Positions 2,223 through 53,186 of a DNA stretch of 64,000 bases are shown here, one piece after another. The stretch comes from an uncultured Bacilli bacterium (GTDB taxonomy: Bacteria > Bacillota_I > Bacilli_A > RFN20 > CAG-826). Position 1 is the first letter of the stretch; every line of letters begins with the position of its first letter. The notes below the pieces were generated by a model. That model saw only the letters and a program-made list of their open reading frames with translations, was not told where the DNA came from and did not search any database. A program made the translations under genes and the position numbers. The stretch is from positions 102,359-166,358 of the forward strand of contig CALWDE010000004.1 of NCBI GenBank assembly GCA_944376605.1. Direction: 5' to 3'.

Positions 2223-4550
2223 TTATATTCCAAACTGGCTACGATCAAGGATACGGATATCCAGCATGGAATCGCTATTGAAGGTGAGCCTCACAGCAAA
2301 AGGTAATCCTTCTTTGACATAATAGGTATAGCTTCCTCTCACTACTACTTCATAACCGCTTTCTAAAAGATAAGCTTTGTAGTCTTCTGCGTATTTCTCA
2401 AACACATCTGAACCAATAAGAGAGTAGTTGTTGCTAATTATAAATTCAATATAGCCAGCGTTCCCAACAAACCAGTAGTCATCAAGAGTAGCGTTATACA
2501 AATAAGGAACCTCACTTGCATACTCCCCAATAAAGCTCTCTTCCGCAAGTTGGGCGTGGATGGAAGGATGTGCTTCTTCCCATGTGGTTGGAGCAACAAA
2601 AGCATCCTCAATGCCTGAGAAGTCAATGGATTCAGGAAGAGCGACACCATAAGAAATCGTCGCTACATCTTCTGAAGTAATTTCGTTTTCATATTGATAA
2701 GAAGTGATTGTGCTTGTTTCACTATCAAAAGTAAAAGTAAGGGTAGGTTCTAAAATAAAGTCTCCGTTTGGCCCAAGAGGGAACACTTCATCAAGTCCTC
2801 TGACAAAGGTGTTTGCCTTTAAGGATGTATCACTCATAAACACAAAAGCTTGAGGAGCAATATTTTGAATTCCGATATAGTCATCAATCGATTCATATTC
2901 CCCACTAGCAGAATCAGTCGTACGGGCAATCATATCTTCCCCAACAGTGAAGGGCGCTACTCCGCCTTCTTGGAAGACATATCCAGAATAACTATGAATA
3001 TAGTCATAAGTGCCACCAGCAGCAGTATTCATATGTACATTGTCCACAAGCAAGATATTGTCTTTCACCGTGTAAGTTGTGGTTAAAACAGAGTTACTCA
3101 CGTTATGCGTAACAATTTGATAACCATTAGCAGAATCAAACTTTGCTAAAGCATTACTTATACGGACATCAGCCTCTTCTTCATGAACCGTTACCTCTTC
3201 AATCGCAACTGGCTCTTTAAAGGTAACATCAAACTCATAGTGGAATGTGTTATCCCCAATGATGGTAGACCAAGAAGTTGCGTGGATATTGGTCACTTCT
3301 CCTTCCGCATTTGTGTTAGCTTCTAAATCAATAATCACACCCATGCCGTCATAATATTGAGAGAATTTCTCCACAAGCTCATTGGCTTTATAGCCAAAAT
3401 AACGATAGGTGTCTTCATCCACTTTACGGAAAGCGGAAAGTTCTATTAATGAAGAGACAGAAGGCGCAACATCATCATACATAGATCCAGTAGGAACCTC
3501 TGCTAAAGTGTTCGCACTAGAAATAAATTGTTCCAGCGCCTCTCCTTCGCTTCCCTTCTTTAAATAAGTTGTTTCATCCACGCCATAAGCATGAGTAATA
3601 ACTCTTGCCCTGTTATTTTGATAATCGAAAGTATTCTCTTTATTTACATAAGTTACTTCTGCTTGACCGTTTAAATAACGGGTGAGAGAAACTTCATAAG
3701 TAACAACGTCTGCATTTAAATAAGAAAGGTTCTCACTTGTTAGAGCAGTTTCTGGTAAAGCAAAAGAGGCAACAAAGTCTTCCACCTCTTTCAGTGAAGA
3801 GGTTCCGACATTCCTAATCACACCTGTTGTTGCAGAAATCATTTCTGAAATAGAACCATCAGAATCGGTGTAATTCGGCGCAAAACCAATATGAATTTCT
3901 TCATTTTCAATTGGATTAATAAATATGCGAAGAATGTTGCTCACATAATTGCCCAAATTAAACATAGAGGCAAAAACTTGAATAACGTTTTGATCTTCAA
4001 TCACAAAATAGCCGCTTTGATGAATCAAATCTTCTGCAGTAAAGGCAACATCTTCCCTATCTAACAAAGAAAGATAACTTAACTCACTTGTGGAGTAATA
4101 AGGATGCGTGACCCCGTCTTCTTCGTAAGATAAAGCATTAAGAACAACATAACTTCCATTTTGTTTTTCAACAGAATATAGAAGTGTCTCTCCTTCTTTT
4201 TCATAGCTAGGTAAGGCAACAGAAGCAGTCGCACCAGAAGCGTCTGCAATATAGGTTGAAGTGAGAATTCTTCCTCCTGTAACAGTCCCGTCCTCGCTTA
4301 AAAATCCATACGTATAGTTTGTGGACGTTTTGGCTTCATTCAGAAGATTCATAATCTTCGTACGTTCTGCCTCAACATCAATAGAGGGTCCAGGAGGCAA
4401 GGTAGAAGAGGAAGAAGAACCTCCAGAAGAGGTGTTAGAACTACTAGAACTCTCGCTAGAGTTAGAAGTGCTGCTCGAAGAGGTAGTGCCTCCACAAGAA
4501 CTTAAAATAAGCAGGGAGGCTGCCGCGATAAGTAGAAGTTGCTTTTTCAT
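2223..4550 (-). CDS. Large surface lipoprotein (775 aa) with Ser-rich linker
   Basis: MKKQLLLIAAASLLILSSCGG signal peptide with lipobox, then a poly-Ser/Thr low-complexity linker and a large unknown domain. The ORF-track start (4640) is a spurious extension; the start is placed at the ATG at 4550. Confidence 0.7.
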   Translation of the reverse strand: MKKQLLLIAAASLLILSSCGGTTSSSSTSNSSESSSSSNTSSGGSSSSSTLPPGPSIDVEAERTKIMNLLNEAKTSTNYTYGFLSEDGTVTGGRILTSTYIADASGATASVALPSYEKEGETLLYSVEKQNGSYVVLNALSYEEDGVTHPYYSTSELSYLSLLDREDVAFTAEDLIHQSGYFVIEDQNVIQVFASMFNLGNYVSNILRIFINPIENEEIHIGFAPNYTDSDGSISEMISATTGVIRNVGTSSLKEVEDFVASFALPETALTSENLSYLNADVVTYEVSLTRYLNGQAEVTYVNKENTFDYQNNRARVITHAYGVDETTYLKKGSEGEALEQFISSANTLAEVPTGSMYDDVAPSVSSLIELSAFRKVDEDTYRYFGYKANELVEKFSQYYDGMGVIIDLEANTNAEGEVTNIHATSWSTIIGDNTFHYEFDVTFKEPVAIEEVTVHEEEADVRISNALAKFDSANGYQIVTHNVSNSVLTTTYTVKDNILLVDNVHMNTAAGGTYDYIHSYSGYVFQEGGVAPFTVGEDMIARTTDSASGEYESIDDYIGIQNIAPQAFVFMSDTSLKANTFVRGLDEVFPLGPNGDFILEPTLTFTFDSETSTITSYQYENEITSEDVATISYGVALPESIDFSGIEDAFVAPTTWEEAHPSIHAQLAEESFIGEYASEVPYLYNATLDDYWFVGNAGYIEFIISNNYSLIGSDVFEKYAEDYKAYLLESGYEVVVRGSYTYYVKEGLPFAVRLTFNSDSMLDIRILDRSQFGI

Positions 4551-4623
4551 GTTCACTAAATATTCCCTTCGGCTCAAAATCATTATGGAAATATCGAGAA
4601 AGTCAAGGAAAGAAGAAAACTCT

Positions 4624-5685
4624 TTACTGTCTATTAACAATCCTTAAAGGTAAGGCATTTTCAACTGCTTCCTCTTTTTTAAGAAACACGCGAACAAAAG
4701 AAAGCTGCTTTTTAAATGATCTCGCATTCTTCTCAATGGAGTCATAGGCGCGAACTTCATACCCCTTTTCATGGAAAAATTTCGCCATAGAAAGTGCGTC
4801 TTCTCGAATGATACAAGCCTCTTCTCCAACACCAAGCAGCGTAATAGGAGAAGGCGCTTTTTCTAGAAGAGAAGAATAGTAAGAGAGGAAAAATTGAAGA
4901 TTTTCTTCCCTTTCTGCAGGGTATTTATCTCCTTCTAGCCACTGCAAAGCAAAAATGCCTTCTTCACCGCGTGGAAAAAGACAAAAATCGAGGCCGATAC
5001 GCGACATAAAGGGGGTATAACCAATATTCTTTGCAACAATATCTCCGTTAAAGTCATCTCTTTTTCCTATTTTTCGAATATGAAGCGCGAACTCATTTTT
5101 CTTGCAGTAATAAGCTTCTGCACTTAAACGGTACGCTTCTGCCTCTTTATAAGGCAAAGAAATGACGTTTACTCCTTTTTGGAGCAAGGGACGCGTTATT
5201 TTTTCTAAAAATTCATCATAAAGAACATCTAATTTGCCTGCTAAAAAGATAGAAGGATCTTCTTCCTCTAAAACCTCAAATCCTGCACGAGAAAAGGAAG
5301 GGATGTAATAGAAGGAAGAATGTCTCTCTTTCCATCTTTTGGCAATCTCATCACTTGTGCCCGGAAGAAGCAATCCGCGGAAAATGACAATTTTATTTTC
5401 TGCGAGATATGAAAAGTATTCTTCTCGCCAAAAAGGACTGCAAAAAATAAGAACATCCGCTTCTTTCATAGCAAAAGAAGCATCATTAAGAAAGATAGTG
5501 CCTTTTCTTCTTGTTTCCTTTTCTAGTAAAGGGTCATAACCTTTTAAAAACTGTGCTTTTGCACATCTTTCATGTTCTTCCCTAGATAAAAAGTATAGAA
5601 AGCGTTCTTTTGCCTTGAGGATCTTTCTTGCAAAGGCAAGAGATCTTAGAAGGTATTTTTCTTCTCCAATCAGTAACGCTTTCAT
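4624..5685 (-). CDS. Divergent UDP-glucose/GDP-mannose dehydrogenase-family-like protein (Rossmann GxGxxG motif not conserved)
   Basis: IPSFSRAG resembles UDPGDH NPEFLREG. PSIFLAG, AEAYRLSAEAY and SRIGLDFCLFPRGEEG resemble the UDPGDH central-domain motifs RIG..G.GGxCFPKD. N-terminal MKALLIGEEKYLL lacks the glycines. Pattern-level similarity only. Confidence 0.35.
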   Translation of the reverse strand: MKALLIGEEKYLLRSLAFARKILKAKERFLYFLSREEHERCAKAQFLKGYDPLLEKETRRKGTIFLNDASFAMKEADVLIFCSPFWREEYFSYLAENKIVIFRGLLLPGTSDEIAKRWKERHSSFYYIPSFSRAGFEVLEEEDPSIFLAGKLDVLYDEFLEKITRPLLQKGVNVISLPYKEAEAYRLSAEAYYCKKNEFALHIRKIGKRDDFNGDIVAKNIGYTPFMSRIGLDFCLFPRGEEGIFALQWLEGDKYPAEREENLQFFLSYYSSLLEKAPSPITLLGVGEEACIIREDALSMAKFFHEKGYEVRAYDSIEKNARSFKKQLSFVRVFLKKEEAVENALPLRIVNRQ

Positions 5686-6866: not shown

Positions 6867-7352
6867 TTACTTGTGATAGGGTTCGTGATTTGCAATTTTG
6901 AACGCGCGATAAATCTGTTCTAAAAGGACAATTCGGCATAATTGATGCGGTAAGGTTAATTTTCCAAAGGACAAAAAAGCGTTCCCTCTTTTACGAAGTG
7001 CTTCTCCCACACCAAGAGAACCGCCAATTGCAAAGCTGACCGTTCCATCTCCTCTTCGATAAGAATCCATCAAAAAAGAAGAAAACTCTTCCGAAGTTAA
7101 CTCTTTTTGGTTCAAATCCAAAACAATTAAAAATTCGCGCGGTTTGATCTTTATTAATAAAGATTCTGCTTCCTTATCTTTAATCAAAATCTCATCTTTT
7201 AATGAAGTTTTGCTGGGAATTTTTAAATCTGGTACTTCGATTACTTCAATCTGAGAATAGCTTGATATTCTTTTGCAATATTCTTTTTCCGCTTCTTCCA
7301 AAAAGGACTCTTTTAAATGGCCTATGGTTAATATCCTTGTTTTCATCGCCAA
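6867..7352 (-). CDS. rlmH: 23S rRNA (pseudouridine1915-N3)-methyltransferase RlmH
   Basis: ~155-aa SPOUT protein. ILTIGHLKE start, GEALRK, C-terminal NHEPYHK (RlmH NHPYHR-like). Confidence 0.85.
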   Translation of the reverse strand: MAMKTRILTIGHLKESFLEEAEKEYCKRISSYSQIEVIEVPDLKIPSKTSLKDEILIKDKEAESLLIKIKPREFLIVLDLNQKELTSEEFSSFLMDSYRRGDGTVSFAIGGSLGVGEALRKRGNAFLSFGKLTLPHQLCRIVLLEQIYRAFKIANHEPYHK

Positions 7353-8107
7353 GGGTGTCCTCCTTCTACATTTTCATATTGTCGAAAAGCTTTTAATAAA
7401 ATATCGCTTCGCCCTAACTCCTCTAAACTTCTTCTTGCGCTTTCTAAAGCAAATTCTTCTTTATTACACTCCTCCGATAAATGGGCTAGATAAATCTCTT
7501 TTGTGTTATCTCCTACCATCTCTTTTAAATAACTCGCACACTGCTCATTCGATAAATGGCCTTTGTTCCCCTTTATTCTGCGCTTTAATGCAGCTGGACG
7601 CGAAGAAGCTTTAAGCATCATAAGATCATGGTTCGATTCTAAAACAAAATAAGTTTTGTTTTTTAAATAAGAAAAATCGGAAGGAGGGATAAGACCAGTA
7701 TCGGTTAAGTAAGCAAGAGATTCTTCTTCGTCTTCAAAAATATAGCCAAGCGTATTAGGACTATCATGCGAAGCTAAAATTGGAGTAACTTTTATTTTTC
7801 CAAAAATAAGCGTTTCAAAAGGAGTGAGATAGTAATCCGCTTCTTGATAACTTTGATCTCCAATATAGACTTTAGGCCCTCTCTTTTTACTTCTTGCATC
7901 CATCGTTTTCACTGTGCCAATATGATCAAAATGCGTATGGGTAATAAATAGAGCATCAATATCTTTCACCTGTTTCTGATGGGCGCACAAAAAAGCTTCT
8001 AATACTTCTCGAGGCCTTCCCATATCCACTTGAAGAAGCGTCTCTCCATCACTTAAAAGAAAGGCGTTTCCTTTACTCCCTGAACCAAGTGAAACAAAAG
8101 AAAACAT
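7343..8107 (-). CDS. MBL-fold metallo-hydrolase (YycJ/WalJ-like)
   Basis: MFSFVSLGSGSKGNAF start and HTHFDHIG motif. Overlaps the rlmH start. Confidence 0.7.
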   Translation of the reverse strand: MFSFVSLGSGSKGNAFLLSDGETLLQVDMGRPREVLEAFLCAHQKQVKDIDALFITHTHFDHIGTVKTMDARSKKRGPKVYIGDQSYQEADYYLTPFETLIFGKIKVTPILASHDSPNTLGYIFEDEEESLAYLTDTGLIPPSDFSYLKNKTYFVLESNHDLMMLKASSRPAALKRRIKGNKGHLSNEQCASYLKEMVGDNTKEIYLAHLSEECNKEEFALESARRSLEELGRSDILLKAFRQYENVEGGHPWR

Positions 8108-28091: not shown

Positions 28092-28135
28092 ATCAACTCC
28101 GAGAAAAGTGTAACAAATTTAAGAAAAAATGAAAA

Positions 28136-28222
28136 TAAAAAACCACCGCGCAGAGCGAGTGACCTTAAGGCTGCTTGGTTCCCCACCTGACCTGGTTCGA
28201 TCATCTTCTCTCGCGATGGCTT
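28136..28222 (-). ncRNA. ffs: Signal recognition particle RNA (small bacterial 4.5S/scRNA type)
   Basis: Minus strand reads CCAGGUCAGGUGGGGAACCAAGCAGCC, matching the conserved SRP domain IV (E. coli CCAGGUCAGGUCCGGAAGGAAGCAGCC). 5' and 3' ends pair. TGcTATAAT extended -10 lies just upstream and a U-tract downstream. Position between tadA and serS, as in Bacillus (scr). Confidence 0.8.
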
Positions 28223-28238
28223 TTGTATTATAGCAATT

Positions 28239-46970: not shown

Positions 46971-47017
46971 GGTAATTTCTTTGTGCGTTACAATCCTTAT
47001 ATAAGGAGGAAAGAAAA

Positions 47018-47883: not shown

Positions 47884-49260
47884 ATGGATCGATACGCAAT
47901 TATTCTTGCTGCAGGAAAAGGTTCCCGCATGAAAAGCAAAAGAGAGGATATTAGCAAAGTCTCTTTTCCTATATTAGGGAGACCACTTGTAAAGTGGATT
48001 ATTGAAGCCCTCAAACCGCTATCTCCTAAAAAATTAATCGCCATTATCGGTTTTGGTGGGGCAACTTCAGAGCCTATTGTGAAAGAGGATTGTGAAGTTA
48101 TATGGCAAAAAGAACAAAAAGGCGCAGGTCACGCCGTGATGCAAGTAGCACCCATTTTAGAGGGTGTAGAAGGGGAAACTATTATTTGTTGTGGTGATAC
48201 ACCGCTTATCACAACCGAACTTTACGAAGGGCTATTTCAAAAACACGAAAGTTCGCATAATTCTTTAACTATTATGACCTCTGTTTTAGATGCTCCTCAT
48301 GGCTATGGGCGTATTGTTCGCGATAATCATGGTAATGTAGTAAAAATTACTGAACAGAAGGACTGCGATGATTTGGCAGAACAAATTAAAGAAGTAAATG
48401 CTGGAGTTTATGTCTTTGATAACAAAGAACTTTTTGAAGCTCTTCATCATATCAACACAAATAATGCTGCTGGCGAATATTATTTAACCGATGTTATCGA
48501 ACTTTTTGCTAAAAAAGGATTAAAAGTTGGAACATATGAAGTAGCAGATATTGATGAAACAATGGGCGTTAATGATCGTTATCAACTATCTATTGCTGAG
48601 AAAAATTTAAAAGCCAGAATCAATAAAGGCCACATGTTACGCGGTGTAACTATCGAAGATTCCGACTCTGTGTTTATTGGTCCTGATGTCACAATCGGTC
48701 CTGATACCGTGATCAAACCTGGCTGCTATATTGTTGGTAAAACGTATATTGGCGAAGACAATGTAATTGGGCCTAATACTTACTTAGAAAATTGCGTCGT
48801 TGGAAATGGTAACAAAATTCTTACTTCATATTTAACGGATACTGTAGTAGGTAGTGACAATGAAATCGGGCCATATTTCCATTCGAGAGGAAATACCATT
48901 ATTCATGACAACACCCACTTAGGTAATTTTGTAGAAATTAAAAAATCAACGATAGATTCGGGAGTTAAAGCTCATCATTTGTCGTATTTAGGCGATGCGG
49001 TAATTGCGAAGAACGCAAATATTGGGTGCGGAGTGGTTACTGCAAACTACGATGGATCGCACAAAAACACCACAAACATTGGCGAAAATGCCTTTATCGG
49101 TTGCAACTCTACCTTGATAGCTCCTGTAAATGTTGGTAAGGATACTTTAATTGCCGCAGGAAGCACCATTACAGAAGATGTTAGCGATGGAGATGCTGCC
49201 TTCGCTAGAGAAAGACAAGTTACAAAAGAAGGCGCCGCAAAGAAAATTCTTAAAAAGTAA
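47884..49260 (+). CDS. glmU: Bifunctional UDP-GlcNAc pyrophosphorylase / GlcN-1-P acetyltransferase GlmU
   Basis: LAAGKGSRMKS nucleotidyltransferase motif and C-terminal left-handed beta-helix hexapeptide repeats. Confidence 0.9.
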   Translation: MDRYAIILAAGKGSRMKSKREDISKVSFPILGRPLVKWIIEALKPLSPKKLIAIIGFGGATSEPIVKEDCEVIWQKEQKGAGHAVMQVAPILEGVEGETIICCGDTPLITTELYEGLFQKHESSHNSLTIMTSVLDAPHGYGRIVRDNHGNVVKITEQKDCDDLAEQIKEVNAGVYVFDNKELFEALHHINTNNAAGEYYLTDVIELFAKKGLKVGTYEVADIDETMGVNDRYQLSIAEKNLKARINKGHMLRGVTIEDSDSVFIGPDVTIGPDTVIKPGCYIVGKTYIGEDNVIGPNTYLENCVVGNGNKILTSYLTDTVVGSDNEIGPYFHSRGNTIIHDNTHLGNFVEIKKSTIDSGVKAHHLSYLGDAVIAKNANIGCGVVTANYDGSHKNTTNIGENAFIGCNSTLIAPVNVGKDTLIAAGSTITEDVSDGDAAFARERQVTKEGAAKKILKK

Positions 49261-49262
49261 TT

Positions 49263-49386
49263 TTGCGTTACAAATTTATGAAGTGTAATGCAATATGCGT
49301 TACACTTTTTATTATAAATTTATGTCAATAAAATTTGATAACATCGAAAAAATATCTTTATAAGTAACGCTAAATGCGTTACAATT
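49263..49386. promoter_or_regulatory. Cluster of GTAACGC/GCGTTAC inverted-repeat operator-like sites overlapping the promoter of the DinJ-like gene
   Basis: Near-palindrome GTGTAATGCA-ATA-TGCGTTACAC (~49283-49305), perfect GTAACGC-TAAAT-GCGTTAC (~49364-49382), and an extra half-site TGCGTTACA (~49264-72). Candidate -35 TTGATA and -10 TATAAG, or TACAAT with leaderless ATG. Confidence 0.4.
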
Positions 49387-49676
49387 TAGATATGAGTAAA
49401 ACAACATTAAATTTACGTGTAGATGCAGACCTTAAAAAGGAAGCAGAAAAGGTTATTGAAAAGCTTGGCTTGTCTACAACTGCTTGCATTATCTTGTTTT
49501 TAAAGGCCCTTTGCAGAGAACGCAAATTACCATTTGCTATTTCTGCAGAAACAAAAACCAAAAAGCAACGCGTTATTCATTCTATTGTTAAAAAGGACCC
49601 TCAACCCGCTCTTAATGATAAAGAATCAAAATCTAGTGATTCTTTGTCTTTAGAAAAAGCAATTGATTTACTCTAA
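49374..49676 (+). CDS. RelB/DinJ-family ribbon-helix-helix protein (antitoxin-like)
   Basis: TLNLRVDADLKKEAEKVIEKLGLSTTACIILFLKALCRERKLPF parallels DinJ (RIDEDLKNQAADVLAGMGLTISDLVRITLTKVAREKALPF). Alternative start at 49392 (MSKTT). 100-aa antitoxin-like size. Confidence 0.55.
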   Translation: MRYNLDMSKTTLNLRVDADLKKEAEKVIEKLGLSTTACIILFLKALCRERKLPFAISAETKTKKQRVIHSIVKKDPQPALNDKESKSSDSLSLEKAIDLL

Positions 49677-49680
49677 GTTT

Positions 49681-50466
49681 ATGACCGTTGATGAGGCTAT
49701 TAGCGAATTAATATCTATCCTTCTCTCTGCCCATCCAGAACATTCTTTTTTAATGCGTTCTTATTCGAATTCTTTAAAAGGAAAGCGCGAACTTCTTCGA
49801 GGATTAATGAATCTCTGCCCTGCGCACACTCTTCCCAAGAGGTTTTATGAGTTAGAGAGCGCTCTTTTAGAGTTTGAAAATCGAAATAGAACACGTGTTT
49901 CCTCGATGAGACTTCCTGTTTCGAATCTTGATAAAATCGCACACTATCACGGAAATATTGTTGATTTGGAAGTTGATGCAATTGTAAATTCAGCAAGCAG
50001 CGAATTCTTGGGATGTTTTGTTCCTGGCCACAAGTGTCTAGAAAATGAAATACATTCTTTTACAGGCATGGAACTTCGTGATGCTTGTGATGATATTTTA
50101 AAGAAAGAGAAAAAACAGTTTCGCCCTGGTTATGCCGCTATTACAAGTGGTTTTCACCTTTTTAGCCGTCATGTGATTCATGTCATAATTCCGCATACCT
50201 CAAACCGTGTAACAAATTTAGCTTTATCCGAATTAAAGCTCTGTTATAAAAGCGCTCTGCGTTTGGCAGAAAATTATCACCTTAAAAGTATAGCCTTCCC
50301 CGCTTTAGCGACTGGATCTGCTGGTTTTTCTAAGGAGCTAGGAGCAAGCCTTGCTATTGATACGTGTCATGAATATCTTGTTCATCACCCTTCTTCCCCG
50401 GTGATTATCTTTGTTACCAATAACGATAGTGATAAAAAATATTACGAATCTTACTTAGGAATTTAA
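49681..50466 (+). CDS. Macro-domain protein (protein-ADP-ribose hydrolase-like, Cys/His-substituted catalytic loop), possible Zn-dependent SirTM-associated class
   Basis: VDAIVNSASSEF..., AAITSGFHLF, HVIHVIIPHT and SIAFPALATGSAGF match macro-domain core blocks. The usual GGGGV loop is replaced by GCFVPGHKC. ~85-aa N-terminal extension. First ATG is 5 nt after the RHH gene stop. Confidence 0.6.
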   Translation: MTVDEAISELISILLSAHPEHSFLMRSYSNSLKGKRELLRGLMNLCPAHTLPKRFYELESALLEFENRNRTRVSSMRLPVSNLDKIAHYHGNIVDLEVDAIVNSASSEFLGCFVPGHKCLENEIHSFTGMELRDACDDILKKEKKQFRPGYAAITSGFHLFSRHVIHVIIPHTSNRVTNLALSELKLCYKSALRLAENYHLKSIAFPALATGSAGFSKELGASLAIDTCHEYLVHHPSSPVIIFVTNNDSDKKYYESYLGI

Positions 50467-50525
50467 GCAATAGAAACAAAAATAGCCCTCCAGAAGGAAG
50501 GCTATTTTGTTATTTAGAAAGAGAG

Positions 50526-53186
50526 TTATTTCTTTCTTGCTGCACGCATCTTGAGGATGTTTGCCTGGGCCGCAGCAAGGCGGGCAAGAGGCACACGGAA
50601 TGGGGAACAAGAGACATAATCAAGTCCAACACCATCATAGAATGCGATAGAAGCAGGATCGCCACCAGTTTCACCGCAAACACCAACAACGAGATCTTTG
50701 CGAGTAGCGCGTCCTCTTTCGAAAGCAATCTTTACTAATTCGCCAACACCGTCGACATCAACTGTCTGGAATGGATCGAATTCATAAATCTTGCGCTCAT
50801 AGTAATAAGGTAAGAATTGACCAGAGTCATCACGAGAGAAGCCCATGGTGAGCTGAGTGAGGTCGTTTGTACCAAAGGAGAAGAATTCTGCTTCTTTGGC
50901 GATATCACCAGCACGGAGACATGCTCTCGGAATTTCAATCATGGTACCAATCTTGTAGCTAAGACGGTGTCCTTCTTTGACGAATTCACCTTCTACTGCA
51001 GCGGTTACCACATCTTTTGCCCACTTGAACTCTTTGAGTTCGCCAGCAAGAGGAATCATGATTTCGGGTTCGATATCATGGCCGAGTTCTTTGCTTGCCT
51101 TTAAGGCAGCTTGGACAATAGCAGTGGCCTGCATACGGTAGATTTCTGGATAAGCAACGCATAAACGGCATCCACGGAATCCCATCATTGGGTTGGCTTG
51201 ATGGAGTTGGTTGATGCGGTCTTTTACCTTTTCAACTGTAACGTTGAGAGCCTTGGCAATGCCTTCAATCTTTTCTTCTTCATGAATTTCAGGAAGGAAT
51301 TCGTGGAGAGGTGGGTCAAGAAGACGGATGCAAACGTGGCTATCAGGATTTGCCATATACATGGCATAGAAGTCACTTACTTGATATGGACGAAGTCTTT
51401 CAAGAGCGGCCTCTCTTTGCTCGGTTGTATCGCTGAGAATCATGCTTCTCATATTGAGAATACGATCATCTGCAAAGAACATACGTTCTGTACGGCAAAG
51501 ACCAATACCTTCAGCACCGAGATTACGGGCATTTTCTGCATCTAATGGAGTGTTGCAGTTGGCACGAATCTTTAAGCGGCGATACTTATCGGCCCATTCC
51601 ATCATGCGTCCGAAATATCCGCCTAAATCAGCAGGAACCATGCCGATGGAACCTTCATAAACTTGACCAGTTGTACCATCAACAGAGACAACGTCTTTTG
51701 CTGTGTACACCTTATCACCGATTGTTAAAGTTCCTTTTTCTTCGTTAATAATGGCATCGGTGCAGCCGACAGTGCAGCACTTACCCATGGAACGAGCAAC
51801 AACAGCGGCGTGAGAAGTCATACCACCACGAGAAGTGATGATTGCTTCTGCGTTGACCATACCAATGATATCTTCTGGAGAAGTTTCAGAACGGGCAAGA
51901 ACAACCTTGTGTCCAGCCTCATGCTCTGCTTTTGCTTCTTCAGCAGTGAAAACAAGATGACCAGTACCAGCACCTGGAGATGCAGGAAGTCCCTTGAAAA
52001 TAGCAGTTTTCTTCTTTAACTCGTTGGGGTCAAAGGTTGGGTGGAGAAGGTCGTTGAGCATCTTTGGCTCAACACGAAGAGTTGCTTCTTCCTCATCAAT
52101 TAAACCTTCATCAACAAGGTCACATGCAACCTTTAAAGCTGCGCGAGCGGTACGCTTTCCGTTACGAGTTTGTAAGAAATAGAGTTTTCCCTTTTCGATG
52201 GTGTACTCCATATCTTGCATATCCTTGAAGTAATGCTCCATATTTTTGATGGACTTAACAAATTCCTTGTAAACTTCAGGCATACGCTTTGCAAGCTCAT
52301 CAATGTGGAGAGGAGTACGAACACCAGCAACAACGTCTTCCCCTTGTGCGTTGGGTAAGAATTCGGCATAGATTTCGTTTTCACCGGTAGATGGATTTCT
52401 CGAGAAAGCAACACCAGTGCCGCAATCTTCGCCCATGTTGCCAAATACCATGGTTTGGACGTTAACAGCGGTGCCCCAGCTATAAGGAATGCCGTTCATT
52501 TGACGATAAACGTTGGCACGTTCATTGTCCCAGCTGCGGAAGACAGCAGCGACAGCTTCCTTTAATTGGGTGTAAGGATCAACAGGGAAGTCTTCACCAA
52601 AGACTTTCTTGTAGTAGGCTTTGTACTCTTTTACTAAGCCCTTTAATTGTTCCGCGGTCACCTCGGTATCGAGTTTATAACCGTGCTTTTCTTTAATTTC
52701 ATCTAACATGTGGTCCATGTCAGTTCTTGGATGGCCCTTAGCGATGTTAGTGAACATTAAAATGAAACGACGATAAGAGTCATAAGCAAATCTTTCATTG
52801 CCAGTTGCTTTTACCATTGCTTCACAAGTCTCGTCATTTAAACCAAGATTAAGGATGGTGTCCATCATACCAGGCATCGAAACACGTGCACCGGAACGAA
52901 CAGAGACGAGAAGTGGCATACCTTTGCCACCAAATTCTTTTCCAGAGACCTTTTCAATCTCGTGGATGTGAGCGACGACATCGCTCCAAACCTCATCGGG
53001 GATTTTCTTTCCCGATTGATAATAGAGGTTACAGGCTTCAGTAGAGATGGTAAAACCAGCAGGAATATTCATCCCTGCAGCAGTCATCTCGGCAAGCCCT
53101 GCTCCTTTTCCTCCAAGGATATCTTTTCCAAGCCCAAGTTCGTGAGCTTCCTTGAAGGAGAAGACATACTTCTTATTGTCTGCCAT
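50526..53186 (-). CDS. ppdK: Pyruvate, phosphate dikinase
   Basis: ~890 aa. PEP-utilising enzyme motifs (GGMTSHAAVVARSMGKCCTVGC phospho-His domain), ATP-grasp N-terminus, C-terminal TIM barrel. Start set at MADNKKYVF with GGAGG RBS; the ORF-track extension was rejected. Confidence 0.9.
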   Translation of the reverse strand: MADNKKYVFSFKEAHELGLGKDILGGKGAGLAEMTAAGMNIPAGFTISTEACNLYYQSGKKIPDEVWSDVVAHIHEIEKVSGKEFGGKGMPLLVSVRSGARVSMPGMMDTILNLGLNDETCEAMVKATGNERFAYDSYRRFILMFTNIAKGHPRTDMDHMLDEIKEKHGYKLDTEVTAEQLKGLVKEYKAYYKKVFGEDFPVDPYTQLKEAVAAVFRSWDNERANVYRQMNGIPYSWGTAVNVQTMVFGNMGEDCGTGVAFSRNPSTGENEIYAEFLPNAQGEDVVAGVRTPLHIDELAKRMPEVYKEFVKSIKNMEHYFKDMQDMEYTIEKGKLYFLQTRNGKRTARAALKVACDLVDEGLIDEEEATLRVEPKMLNDLLHPTFDPNELKKKTAIFKGLPASPGAGTGHLVFTAEEAKAEHEAGHKVVLARSETSPEDIIGMVNAEAIITSRGGMTSHAAVVARSMGKCCTVGCTDAIINEEKGTLTIGDKVYTAKDVVSVDGTTGQVYEGSIGMVPADLGGYFGRMMEWADKYRRLKIRANCNTPLDAENARNLGAEGIGLCRTERMFFADDRILNMRSMILSDTTEQREAALERLRPYQVSDFYAMYMANPDSHVCIRLLDPPLHEFLPEIHEEEKIEGIAKALNVTVEKVKDRINQLHQANPMMGFRGCRLCVAYPEIYRMQATAIVQAALKASKELGHDIEPEIMIPLAGELKEFKWAKDVVTAAVEGEFVKEGHRLSYKIGTMIEIPRACLRAGDIAKEAEFFSFGTNDLTQLTMGFSRDDSGQFLPYYYERKIYEFDPFQTVDVDGVGELVKIAFERGRATRKDLVVGVCGETGGDPASIAFYDGVGLDYVSCSPFRVPLARLAAAQANILKMRAARKK

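Follow-up and report, generated by a model that had tools for sequence, protein, structure and literature searches.

An antitoxin-like ribbon-helix-helix gene paired with a divergent Zn-Macro gene in an uncultured Bacilli bacterium: probably a reduced redox/ADP-ribosylation operon rather than a toxin-antitoxin system

What does a gene for an antitoxin-like ribbon-helix-helix (RHH) protein do directly upstream of a gene for a macrodomain protein? The question is raised by a 64-kb stretch of DNA from an uncultured Bacilli bacterium (hereafter the window), in which a RelB/DinJ-family RHH gene and a divergent Zn-loop macrodomain (Zn-Macro) gene are flanked by glmU (47884-49260) on one side and the convergent ppdK gene (50526-53186, minus strand) on the other. 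In two papers, Zn-Macros are described only alongside SirTM, as eraser-writer pairs, in an extended operon with GcvH-L and LplA2, or as fusions, and they have been discussed as antimicrobial targets (PMC4518038, PMC11490716). The initial annotation of the window had raised the idea of a toxin-antitoxin (TA)-like or stress-switch module. Our analysis favours another answer: the pair is probably what remains of a redox/ADP-ribosylation operon that is specific to this lineage and controlled by the RHH protein, and not a TA system, with a macrodomain that is probably non-catalytic or re-purposed. Both protein families are known; what is new is a reduced Zn-Macro operon that is headed by an RHH regulator and whose macrodomain is degenerate. 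In what follows, L-numbers denote related loci that were compared with the window and P-numbers related proteins; searches of the bacterium's own genome cover the 64-kb window.

The two genes are co-oriented, and the RHH stop codon is separated from the macro ATG by 4 nt; in L003 and L004 the two reading frames overlap by 4 nt. They are co-transcribed and closely coupled, and form a two-gene operon. The coupling had been recognized in the initial annotation, but its figures (100 and 262 aa, 5 nt apart) have to be revised to 94 and 261 aa and a 4-nt gap. For the RHH protein, the true start is the ATG at 49392, since all orthologues open with MSKTT or MPKTT. An in-frame ATG at 49374 sits inside an operator half-site (aTGCGTTAC; see below) and would prepend a spurious 'MRYNLD' to the protein. 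Because the operator ATG is in frame with the RHH gene, spurious 'MRY...' N-terminal extensions occur in several genomes, as seen in the database gene calls P0151, P0172, P0181, P0194 and P0228. No further open reading frame (ORF) is found between glmU and ppdK, which leaves no room for a RelE/YafQ toxin and agrees with the earlier remark that none lies nearby.

The RHH protein is a member of the RelB/DinJ family, as had been claimed. It matches Pfam RelB (PF04221, E 3e-11, 43.4 bits vs. a cutoff of 22.4) and NCBIfam TIGR02384 RelB_DinJ (62.2 bits, over the 45.65 cutoff), and its closest solved structures are DinJ and RelB, aligned on residues 10-71. The AlphaFold2 (AF2) monomer model has helices at 12-25 and 29-43 (pLDDT about 90) and a terminal helix at 86-93 (LSLEKAIDLL), joined by a disordered, Lys/Ser/Glu-rich linker (residues 50-85, mostly pLDDT <60). 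A search with the single sequence gave 6 proteins, and a profile search gave a subfamily of about 95, labelled as 'Bacilli bacterium' metagenome-assembled genomes where named. Its members have in common the terminal motif S[IL][KR]xAIxK[LF], which follows the RHH domain and a linker of low complexity. The nearest relatives outside the subfamily, P0154 and P0156 (42-48% identity over the RHH domain), have YafQ/ParE toxin genes downstream; their C-terminal halves are unrelated to, and unalignable with, the C-terminus of the window protein. The RHH protein most likely descends from DinJ/RelB antitoxins and acts as a dedicated autorepressor of its operon, because the same subfamily and operator head operons of variable cargo or none. 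We infer that it binds DNA and represses transcription.

The predicted targets of this repressor lie within 49265-49382, where we find the two palindromes and the extra half-site reported in the initial annotation, at distances that are kept in L003. The palindromes start 107 and 28 nt upstream of the RHH ATG in the window and L001, and 106 and 28 nt upstream in L003, whose macro and RHH proteins are 49% and about 61% identical, respectively, to those of the window. The distal palindrome, O1, has two 12-nt arms (49281-49292 and 49296-49307) that are 92% complementary. As RNA it would form a hairpin of 13 bp with a U tract behind it (-15.4 kcal/mol, z -5.7), a terminator-like scan match, and it probably doubles as the glmU terminator. 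The proximal palindrome, O2, is perfect and overlaps the -10 box of a predicted promoter, the only promoter-like site on the plus strand in 49100-50700. The RHH transcript may be leaderless, because the ATG is only 6 nt past this -10 box.

The window contains nine GTAACGC sites, four of them within 49265-49382, and at ≤1 mismatch the full palindrome occurs only in the O1 core and at O2. In 1.4 Mb of loci, all matches to a degenerate operator pattern fall just 5′ of subfamily RHH genes, except two loose ones. The half-site/-10 composite GCGTTAYAAT recurs 5′ of the RHH gene in L004, L089-L096, L171, L173 and L177. In L179 the operator reads GTAATGC-N5-GCATTAC, a compensatory change in both arms that keeps the symmetry, and the upstream region holds a third half-site, CATTAC. 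We consider the operators real and conserved, and this phylogenetic footprinting supports their function. In the window, a search for a wider regulon found no full operators beyond O1 and O2. Just one related site is present, a lone GCGTTACAAT at 46985-46994, in the 47-nt gap 5′ of ispE, which has the same half-site/-10 composite as O2 and could be a chance occurrence or a weak secondary RHH site.

To what kind of operon does this repressor belong? The RHH-macro pair is conserved as neighbours in L001-L005 and L179, a check that the initial annotation had suggested, and the examined loci, a subset of the roughly 95 RHH genes, fall into four forms. In the first, the order is RHH-DUF362-ZnMacro-SirTM (L089-L094, L096 and L098), and the DUF362 protein (PF04015, E 7e-56) has two 4Fe-4S motifs; by analogy with GcvH-L, this Fe-S protein is a candidate SirTM substrate. 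The second form, RHH-DUF362-ZnMacro without an adjacent SirTM, is found in L100, L175/L176 and L177. In L100 it is followed by a minus-strand gene. In L175/L176 (5001-10074) it is followed by genes for an MFS transporter and a rubrerythrin-VIT1 protein, with FUR nearby on the opposite strand, and in L177 (5001-9826) by VIT1 and two flavodoxin/ferredoxin genes; the cargo of these loci has an iron/redox theme. There is no SirTM within 5 kb in L175/L176 or L177, though the macro residues are canonical. The upstream fragment at P0004 is, by analogy with L175, probably DUF362 and not RelB. The third form is the RHH-ZnMacro pair of the window, L001/L002, L003, L004/L005 and L179; in L179 (1056-2122) the order is ispE, RHH and a divergent Zn-Macro (NPAS; loop-2 GVGEMGF), then TetR on the minus strand. 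In the fourth, the RHH gene stands alone: L169 (5001-5288), L173/L174 (5001-5291) and L171 (5001-5276). Here tblastn found no macro remnant, and all of these RHH genes keep the C-terminal motif; the operator persists in L171 and L173/L174, and in L169 there are just two direct half-sites. The flanking genes in L169 and L173/L174 are those of the window (mnmE-tatD-rnmV-ksgA-ispE-glmU-RHH, then convergent ppdK), and forms two, three and four share one chromosomal neighbourhood, because the second form in L175 also lies downstream of glmU. The same RHH thus heads DUF362-ZnMacro(-SirTM) operons or stands alone, so the TA part of the earlier proposal is not supported, and the stress-switch part remains apt for the ancestral operon.

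The association is particular to this lineage. Among 80 Zn-Macro loci taken at one genome per species, a SirTM-like ORF lies within 6 kb in 68 and this RHH in none. In neighbour-joining (NJ) trees the RelB-linked macros fall in one clade, with a common GCFVPGH / FP / P[IV]V[IV]F signature. In a first tree, exact monophyly had 52% support, which rose to 98% when three extra taxa were allowed; a second, wider tree gave 28% and 74%, respectively. The canonical DUF362-linked macros are on short branches; those of the two-gene window/L003 type and of L179 (P0275) are on long branches, together with several further macro relatives. From these trees we infer that the direction of evolution was reduction rather than growth.

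The macro protein itself retains the architecture of a Zn-Macro. It matches PF01661 (E 5e-23) and aligns end-to-end with NF003163 'protein-ADP-ribose hydrolase' (218.1 bits, under the 272 cutoff), and its best sequence matches in the PDB are the Zn-Macros 8RSM, 8RSI, 5KIV and 8RSL. The AF2 model, built from 79 sequences (pLDDT 94, pTM 0.90), consists of a three-helix bundle and a MacroD-type macro fold, with N-terminal helices at 3-17, 19-27, 32-45 and 53-69. In Foldseek it superimposes on SpyMacro 8RSM with TM-scores of 0.91/0.93 and a root mean square deviation of 1.5 Å, the N-terminal helical bundle included; TM-scores to 8RSM, 8RSI, 8RSL and 5KIV together are 0.89-0.92. The Zn-loop of Zn-Macros, which replaces the catalytic loop, is defined as Cx(4)HxC (PMC11490716). 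The GCFVPGHKC stretch of the window protein, C112-FVPG-H117-K-C119, fits this definition, which bears out the earlier assignment to the Zn-type macrodomains of SirTM operons. The putative Zn ligands C112, H117 and C119 are kept, as is His125.

Most of the residues that handle ADP-ribose are replaced. We compared the protein with 134 SirTM-linked Zn-Macros, of which 133 or 134 align at each position. Invariant among them are the GDI Asp, NAAN, the three Zn ligands, the dyad Asp and the loop-2 Phe. In Zn-Macro crystal structures the GDI Asp touches adenine N6, the distal ribose is held by the dyad Asp together with the final NAAN Asn, the ribose is fixed by a loop-2 Phe that swings in, and a C-terminal Phe stacks on the adenine (PMC11490716). 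At these canonical ADP-ribose contacts the window protein has N92 for the GDI Asp, N103-S104-A105-S106 for NAAN (133/133 in the reference set), E121-x3-H125 for the Dx3H dyad (Asp in 133/133; a conservative change), T211-G212-S213-A214 for the loop-2 TGxF arene motif (Phe in 134/134) and N247 at the adenine-stacking position, which is F, Y or W in all SirTM-linked Zn-Macros. At 54 near-invariant columns it deviates 15 times, compared to a mean of 0.3 and a maximum of 6 in the reference set; the values for L003, P0004, L004, L175 and L177 are 17, 9, 1, 1 and 0, respectively. The same pocket positions are replaced differently by lineage, with CSHS/E/S in L003 and NPAS/M in L179. A scan of 1.84 billion representatives brought up further divergent relatives on long branches, some without Zn ligands: P0274 has C..H..S, and the ligands are lost in P0318 and P0319. 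P0280 and P0282, which are truncated or fused versions of P0274-type proteins, could be pseudogenes or assembly chimeras.

Despite this divergence the macro gene is under purifying selection and is not a pseudogene. Its dN/dS relative to L001 is 0.16 (15 synonymous vs. 9 non-synonymous changes), compared to 0-0.10 for neighbouring genes; the RHH gene has a value of 0.34, from only 9 changes. The macro gene is full length in all 13 strain variants; the N-terminal 90 residues hold 13 of their 22 variable positions, and only N247 varies among 15 key positions. Taken from its sequence, the window protein is probably a non-canonical macrodomain, non-catalytic or re-purposed, that would have lost its hydrolase activity. 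To take it for an active ADP-ribose hydrolase would be unsafe, because it has lost residues found in 133/133 SirTM-linked Zn-Macros, a loss that the initial annotation had missed.

Searches for a writer or other partners gave no candidate in the window. A SirTM jackhmmer profile seeded from the L026 operon (LLM-GcvH-L-Macro-X-LplA2) found no SirTM-like ORF in the 64-kb window, L001, L003 or L004. The sole match in the window, 10 bits at 7343-8107, is a metallo-beta-lactamase-fold protein and was rejected as a writer. With phmmer, nothing significant was found in the window for GcvH-L, LplA2, LLM or DUF362, nor was DUF362 found in L001, L003 or L004. The profile and phmmer searches thus agree with the initial annotation, which had listed no sirtuin, GcvH-L or LplA2 gene in the window. 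PADLOC gave no match for either the RHH or the macro protein, and a TA or defence system was discarded as a candidate on these grounds. In the searchable literature we found no paper that links RHH/RelB regulators or DUF362 with Zn-Macro/SirTM operons, and the terms RelB, ribbon-helix-helix and antitoxin appear nowhere in the text of PMC4518038 or PMC11490716 outside the reference lists.

We propose the following scenario. Antitoxin-derived RHH dimers would bind GTAACGC-N5-GCGTTAC and repress their own operon, with O2 covering the -10 box and O1, about 80 bp upstream, doubling as the glmU terminator. The ancestral cargo would have been the DUF362 Fe-S protein and a Zn-Macro, with SirTM in at least one branch, forming an iron/redox-linked ADP-ribosylation circuit; such a circuit would fit the role in oxidative stress that has been proposed for SirTM operons (PMC4518038). 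In the lineage of the window, the operon would have shrunk to the RHH and macro genes. The macro would then have evolved fast and lost the canonical ADP-ribose contacts, keeping the Zn-Macro fold and zinc site, and it would still be maintained by selection in a non-catalytic or altered role.

Several points weigh against this scenario. The changes of E for D and S for N are conservative and the zinc site is intact, so that some residual or altered macro activity is possible; in SauMacro, the zinc site is essential for catalysis (PMC11490716). The direction of evolution rests on distance (NJ) trees with modest support, and long-branch attraction could have grouped the divergent macros. The lack of a neighbouring writer alone does not cause erosion, since L175 and L177 keep canonical macro residues without an adjacent SirTM, and a SirTM or other ADP-ribosyltransferase could lie outside the 64-kb window. 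Lastly, it is strange for an autorepressor to stand alone with no cargo, and this suggests further targets or partners of the RHH protein.

The first of these points leads to the rival explanation that survives best, although we consider it unlikely: the macro protein would still be an active Zn-dependent ADP-ribosylhydrolase, directed against a distant writer or an incoming toxin, and the RHH protein would set the level of this eraser or immunity gene. Such a function would fit the intact putative Zn ligands and His125, the confidently predicted fold, the purifying selection on the gene and the strict tie between zinc coordination and activity in SauMacro (PMC11490716); L175 and L177 also provide RelB-linked canonical Zn-Macros without an adjacent SirTM. 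It is hard to reconcile, however, with changes at five contact or catalytic positions that are fixed in 133 SirTM-linked proteins (or always aromatic, for the stacking position), among them the adenine-contact Asp, the distal-ribose Asn and Asp, and the arene. The differing replacements in sister lineages, some with losses of Zn ligands, point to a relaxed constraint on the pocket rather than to a new, defined specificity, and no writer was found in 64 kb.

A bolder reading, to which we give still less credence, is that the pair has been co-opted as a non-toxic, two-protein transcription switch, in which a dead macrodomain senses an NAD-derived nucleotide, zinc or redox state. The macro protein would then dock on the C-terminal helix of the RHH protein and tune repression in a manner similar to conditional cooperativity. 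If this were true, RHH-DUF362-ZnMacro-SirTM would be a circuit of ADP-ribosylation not described before, with an Fe-S protein as its target. Slightly more doubtful again is the related explanation that the macro protein is a non-toxic partner bound to the RHH C-terminal helix, where it modulates operator binding in response to ligand, zinc or redox, as a domesticated TA architecture. The antitoxin-like gene order and tight coupling (a 4-nt gap in the window, 4-nt overlaps in L003 and L004) are compatible with this, as is the disordered linker with its conserved terminal helix, a feature of toxin-binding antitoxins; the macro is, moreover, the sole cargo gene common to every cargo-bearing form of the operon, and a divergent macro has been retained over long evolutionary times in several lineages. 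But the C-terminal helix is equally conserved in the solo RHH genes, which indicates that the macro is not its only or necessary partner.

Two last explanations are very improbable. A genuine type II TA system, with the macro protein as toxin and the RHH protein as antitoxin, would account for the RelB/DinJ family membership, the antitoxin-first gene order and the autoregulatory-type promoter palindromes, but is disfavoured by a downstream protein that is not RelE/YafQ/ParE-like, is not matched by PADLOC and has an eroded active site for a putative 'toxin', by the occurrence of the same RHH alone or at the head of four- to six-gene metabolic operons, by conserved core synteny and native GC, and by the fact that the Zn-Macros characterized in PMC4518038 and PMC11490716 are hydrolases of a signalling pair, which neither paper describes as toxins. 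To see the macro gene as a slowly decaying, functionless relic, heading for the loss seen in solo-RHH genomes, is just as hard to sustain: the reduction series does end in complete loss at the same locus, the window and L003 macros are heavily eroded and on long branches, a related cluster contains truncated or fused copies (P0280, P0282) and the dN/dS of the macro exceeds that of all neighbouring genes, but at 0.16 it is not near 1, 13 strain variants as well as lineages with only 39-49% identity carry a full-length ORF, and the hydrophobic core and zinc site are kept in a fold predicted at pLDDT 94.

The features of the operon are collected in Table 1, together with the genes of one locus of the first form. 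A hairpin between the convergent macro and ppdK genes is likely a bidirectional terminator that closes the two-gene operon. The initial annotation had seen the pair as part of an accessory insertion, an idea that now looks weak. The GC content of the pair is the same as that of its neighbours and the order glmU-RHH-(macro)-ppdK-FGGY is kept across related genera, and a recent horizontal insertion was rejected on these grounds; the locus is vertically inherited core synteny and not a mobile island.

Table 1. Predicted features of the RHH-macro operon (window coordinates) and genes of a first-form operon (L092 coordinates)
Feature	Position	Strand	Details
Isolated half-site GCGTTAC	49265-49271		Exact motif; directly after glmU stop; equivalent half-site in L003
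Operator O1, imperfect palindrome	49281-49307		Core GTAATGC-N5-GCGTTAC, 49285-49303
Predicted sigma-70-type promoter	49357-49385	+	-35 TTTATA 49357-49362, 17-nt spacer, -10 TACAAT 49380-49385
Operator O2, perfect palindrome GTAACGC-TAAAT-GCGTTAC	49364-49382		0 mismatches; right arm overlaps -10
RelB/DinJ-family RHH gene	49392-49676	+	94 aa; stop codon 49674-49676
Divergent Zn-loop macrodomain gene	49681-50466	+	261 aa; ATG 49681
Hairpin between convergent macro and ppdK genes	50479-50508		Terminator-like match, 13 pairs; RNA fold -16.3 kcal/mol, z -4.9
L092, RHH	2538-2816		First form
L092, DUF362	2860-3987		First form
L092, Zn-Macro	about 4000-4780		First form
L092, SirTM	4638-5618		First form

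Some further observations concern the surroundings of the pair. In the window, L001, L003, L004, L169, L171 and L173, ppdK lies convergently downstream of the RHH gene or close to it, even where the upstream genes differ (L004, L171), and its GC content is 45% vs. about 35%; this recurrence is probably plain synteny. The segment 40144-44860 of the window, by comparison with Pfam calls in L001, is a yidC-jag-DUF2188-mnmE cluster, a typical origin-proximal set, which would put no more than about 10 kb between the RHH-macro pair and the presumed origin of replication. No Rfam RNA family was matched in the RHH-macro region, and the sole family at gathering threshold in the window is the bacterial small SRP RNA (RF00169, 56.9 bits) at 28130-28227 on the minus strand.

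With this locus and its relatives, the Zn-Macro/SirTM operon family gains a probable dedicated RHH repressor with an easily testable predicted operator. They also bring in the DUF362 protein, with its two 4Fe-4S clusters, as a new candidate partner or substrate, in an iron/redox gene setting that fits the proposed oxidative-stress role. The shrinking operons form a natural series in which the macro loses its ADP-ribose-handling residues and keeps its zinc site, which offers a way to probe non-catalytic roles of the zinc site and the three-helix bundle; the same series informs how antitoxin-type RHH proteins turn into ordinary regulators. A caution for annotation follows from the locus, where the labels 'RelB/DinJ antitoxin' and 'protein-ADP-ribose hydrolase' are both misleading. 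The operon family behind it provides concrete, testable leads for bacterial ADP-ribosylation signalling.

How does the operon compare with known systems? With DarTG it shares a bacterial macrodomain in a compact, TA-like operon, but no DarT lies beside the macro gene, whose neighbours are glmU and ppdK, PADLOC gave no match and no match to the DarG family was found; the window protein best matches MacroD-type Zn-Macros and occupies the 'toxin' position behind the RHH gene. Like the catalytically silent GDAP2-like macrodomains, it has a MacroD-type fold without NAAN, catalytic residues or the active-site arene (PMC11490716). Its losses, however, are independent, occurred within the Zn-Macro branch and left the zinc site, and the protein is bacterial and operon-encoded.

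The likeness to DinJ-YafQ/RelBE systems is confined to the RHH side: an RHH protein that passes TIGR02384/PF04221, encoded by the first gene, palindromes over the promoter and a disordered tail that ends in a short helix. The nearest RHH relatives outside the subfamily are true YafQ-partnered antitoxins. In contrast to these systems, the window has no gene for a RelE/YafQ/ParE fold, the partner-binding C-terminus is replaced by the subfamily motif, and a variable metabolic or signalling cargo, solo RHH genes and a conserved chromosomal position take the place of a patchy, mobile distribution.

The SirTM/Zn-Macro operons (PMC4518038, PMC11490716; SauMacro, SpyMacro, MorMacro) differ from the window in that their SirTM, GcvH-L, LplA2, LLM and OYE genes are absent at the window locus, in the RHH repressor that heads the window operon, and in the macro protein, where NAAN, the dyad Asp, the arene, the adenine-contact Asp and the stacking Phe are replaced and NF003163 is matched below the equivalog cutoff. 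They nevertheless share with it the three-helix bundle, the MacroD-type fold, the Cx(4)HxC loop in place of the Gly-rich catalytic loop and the end-to-end match to NF003163, and sister operons in the clade of the window still carry SirTM directly after the macro gene.

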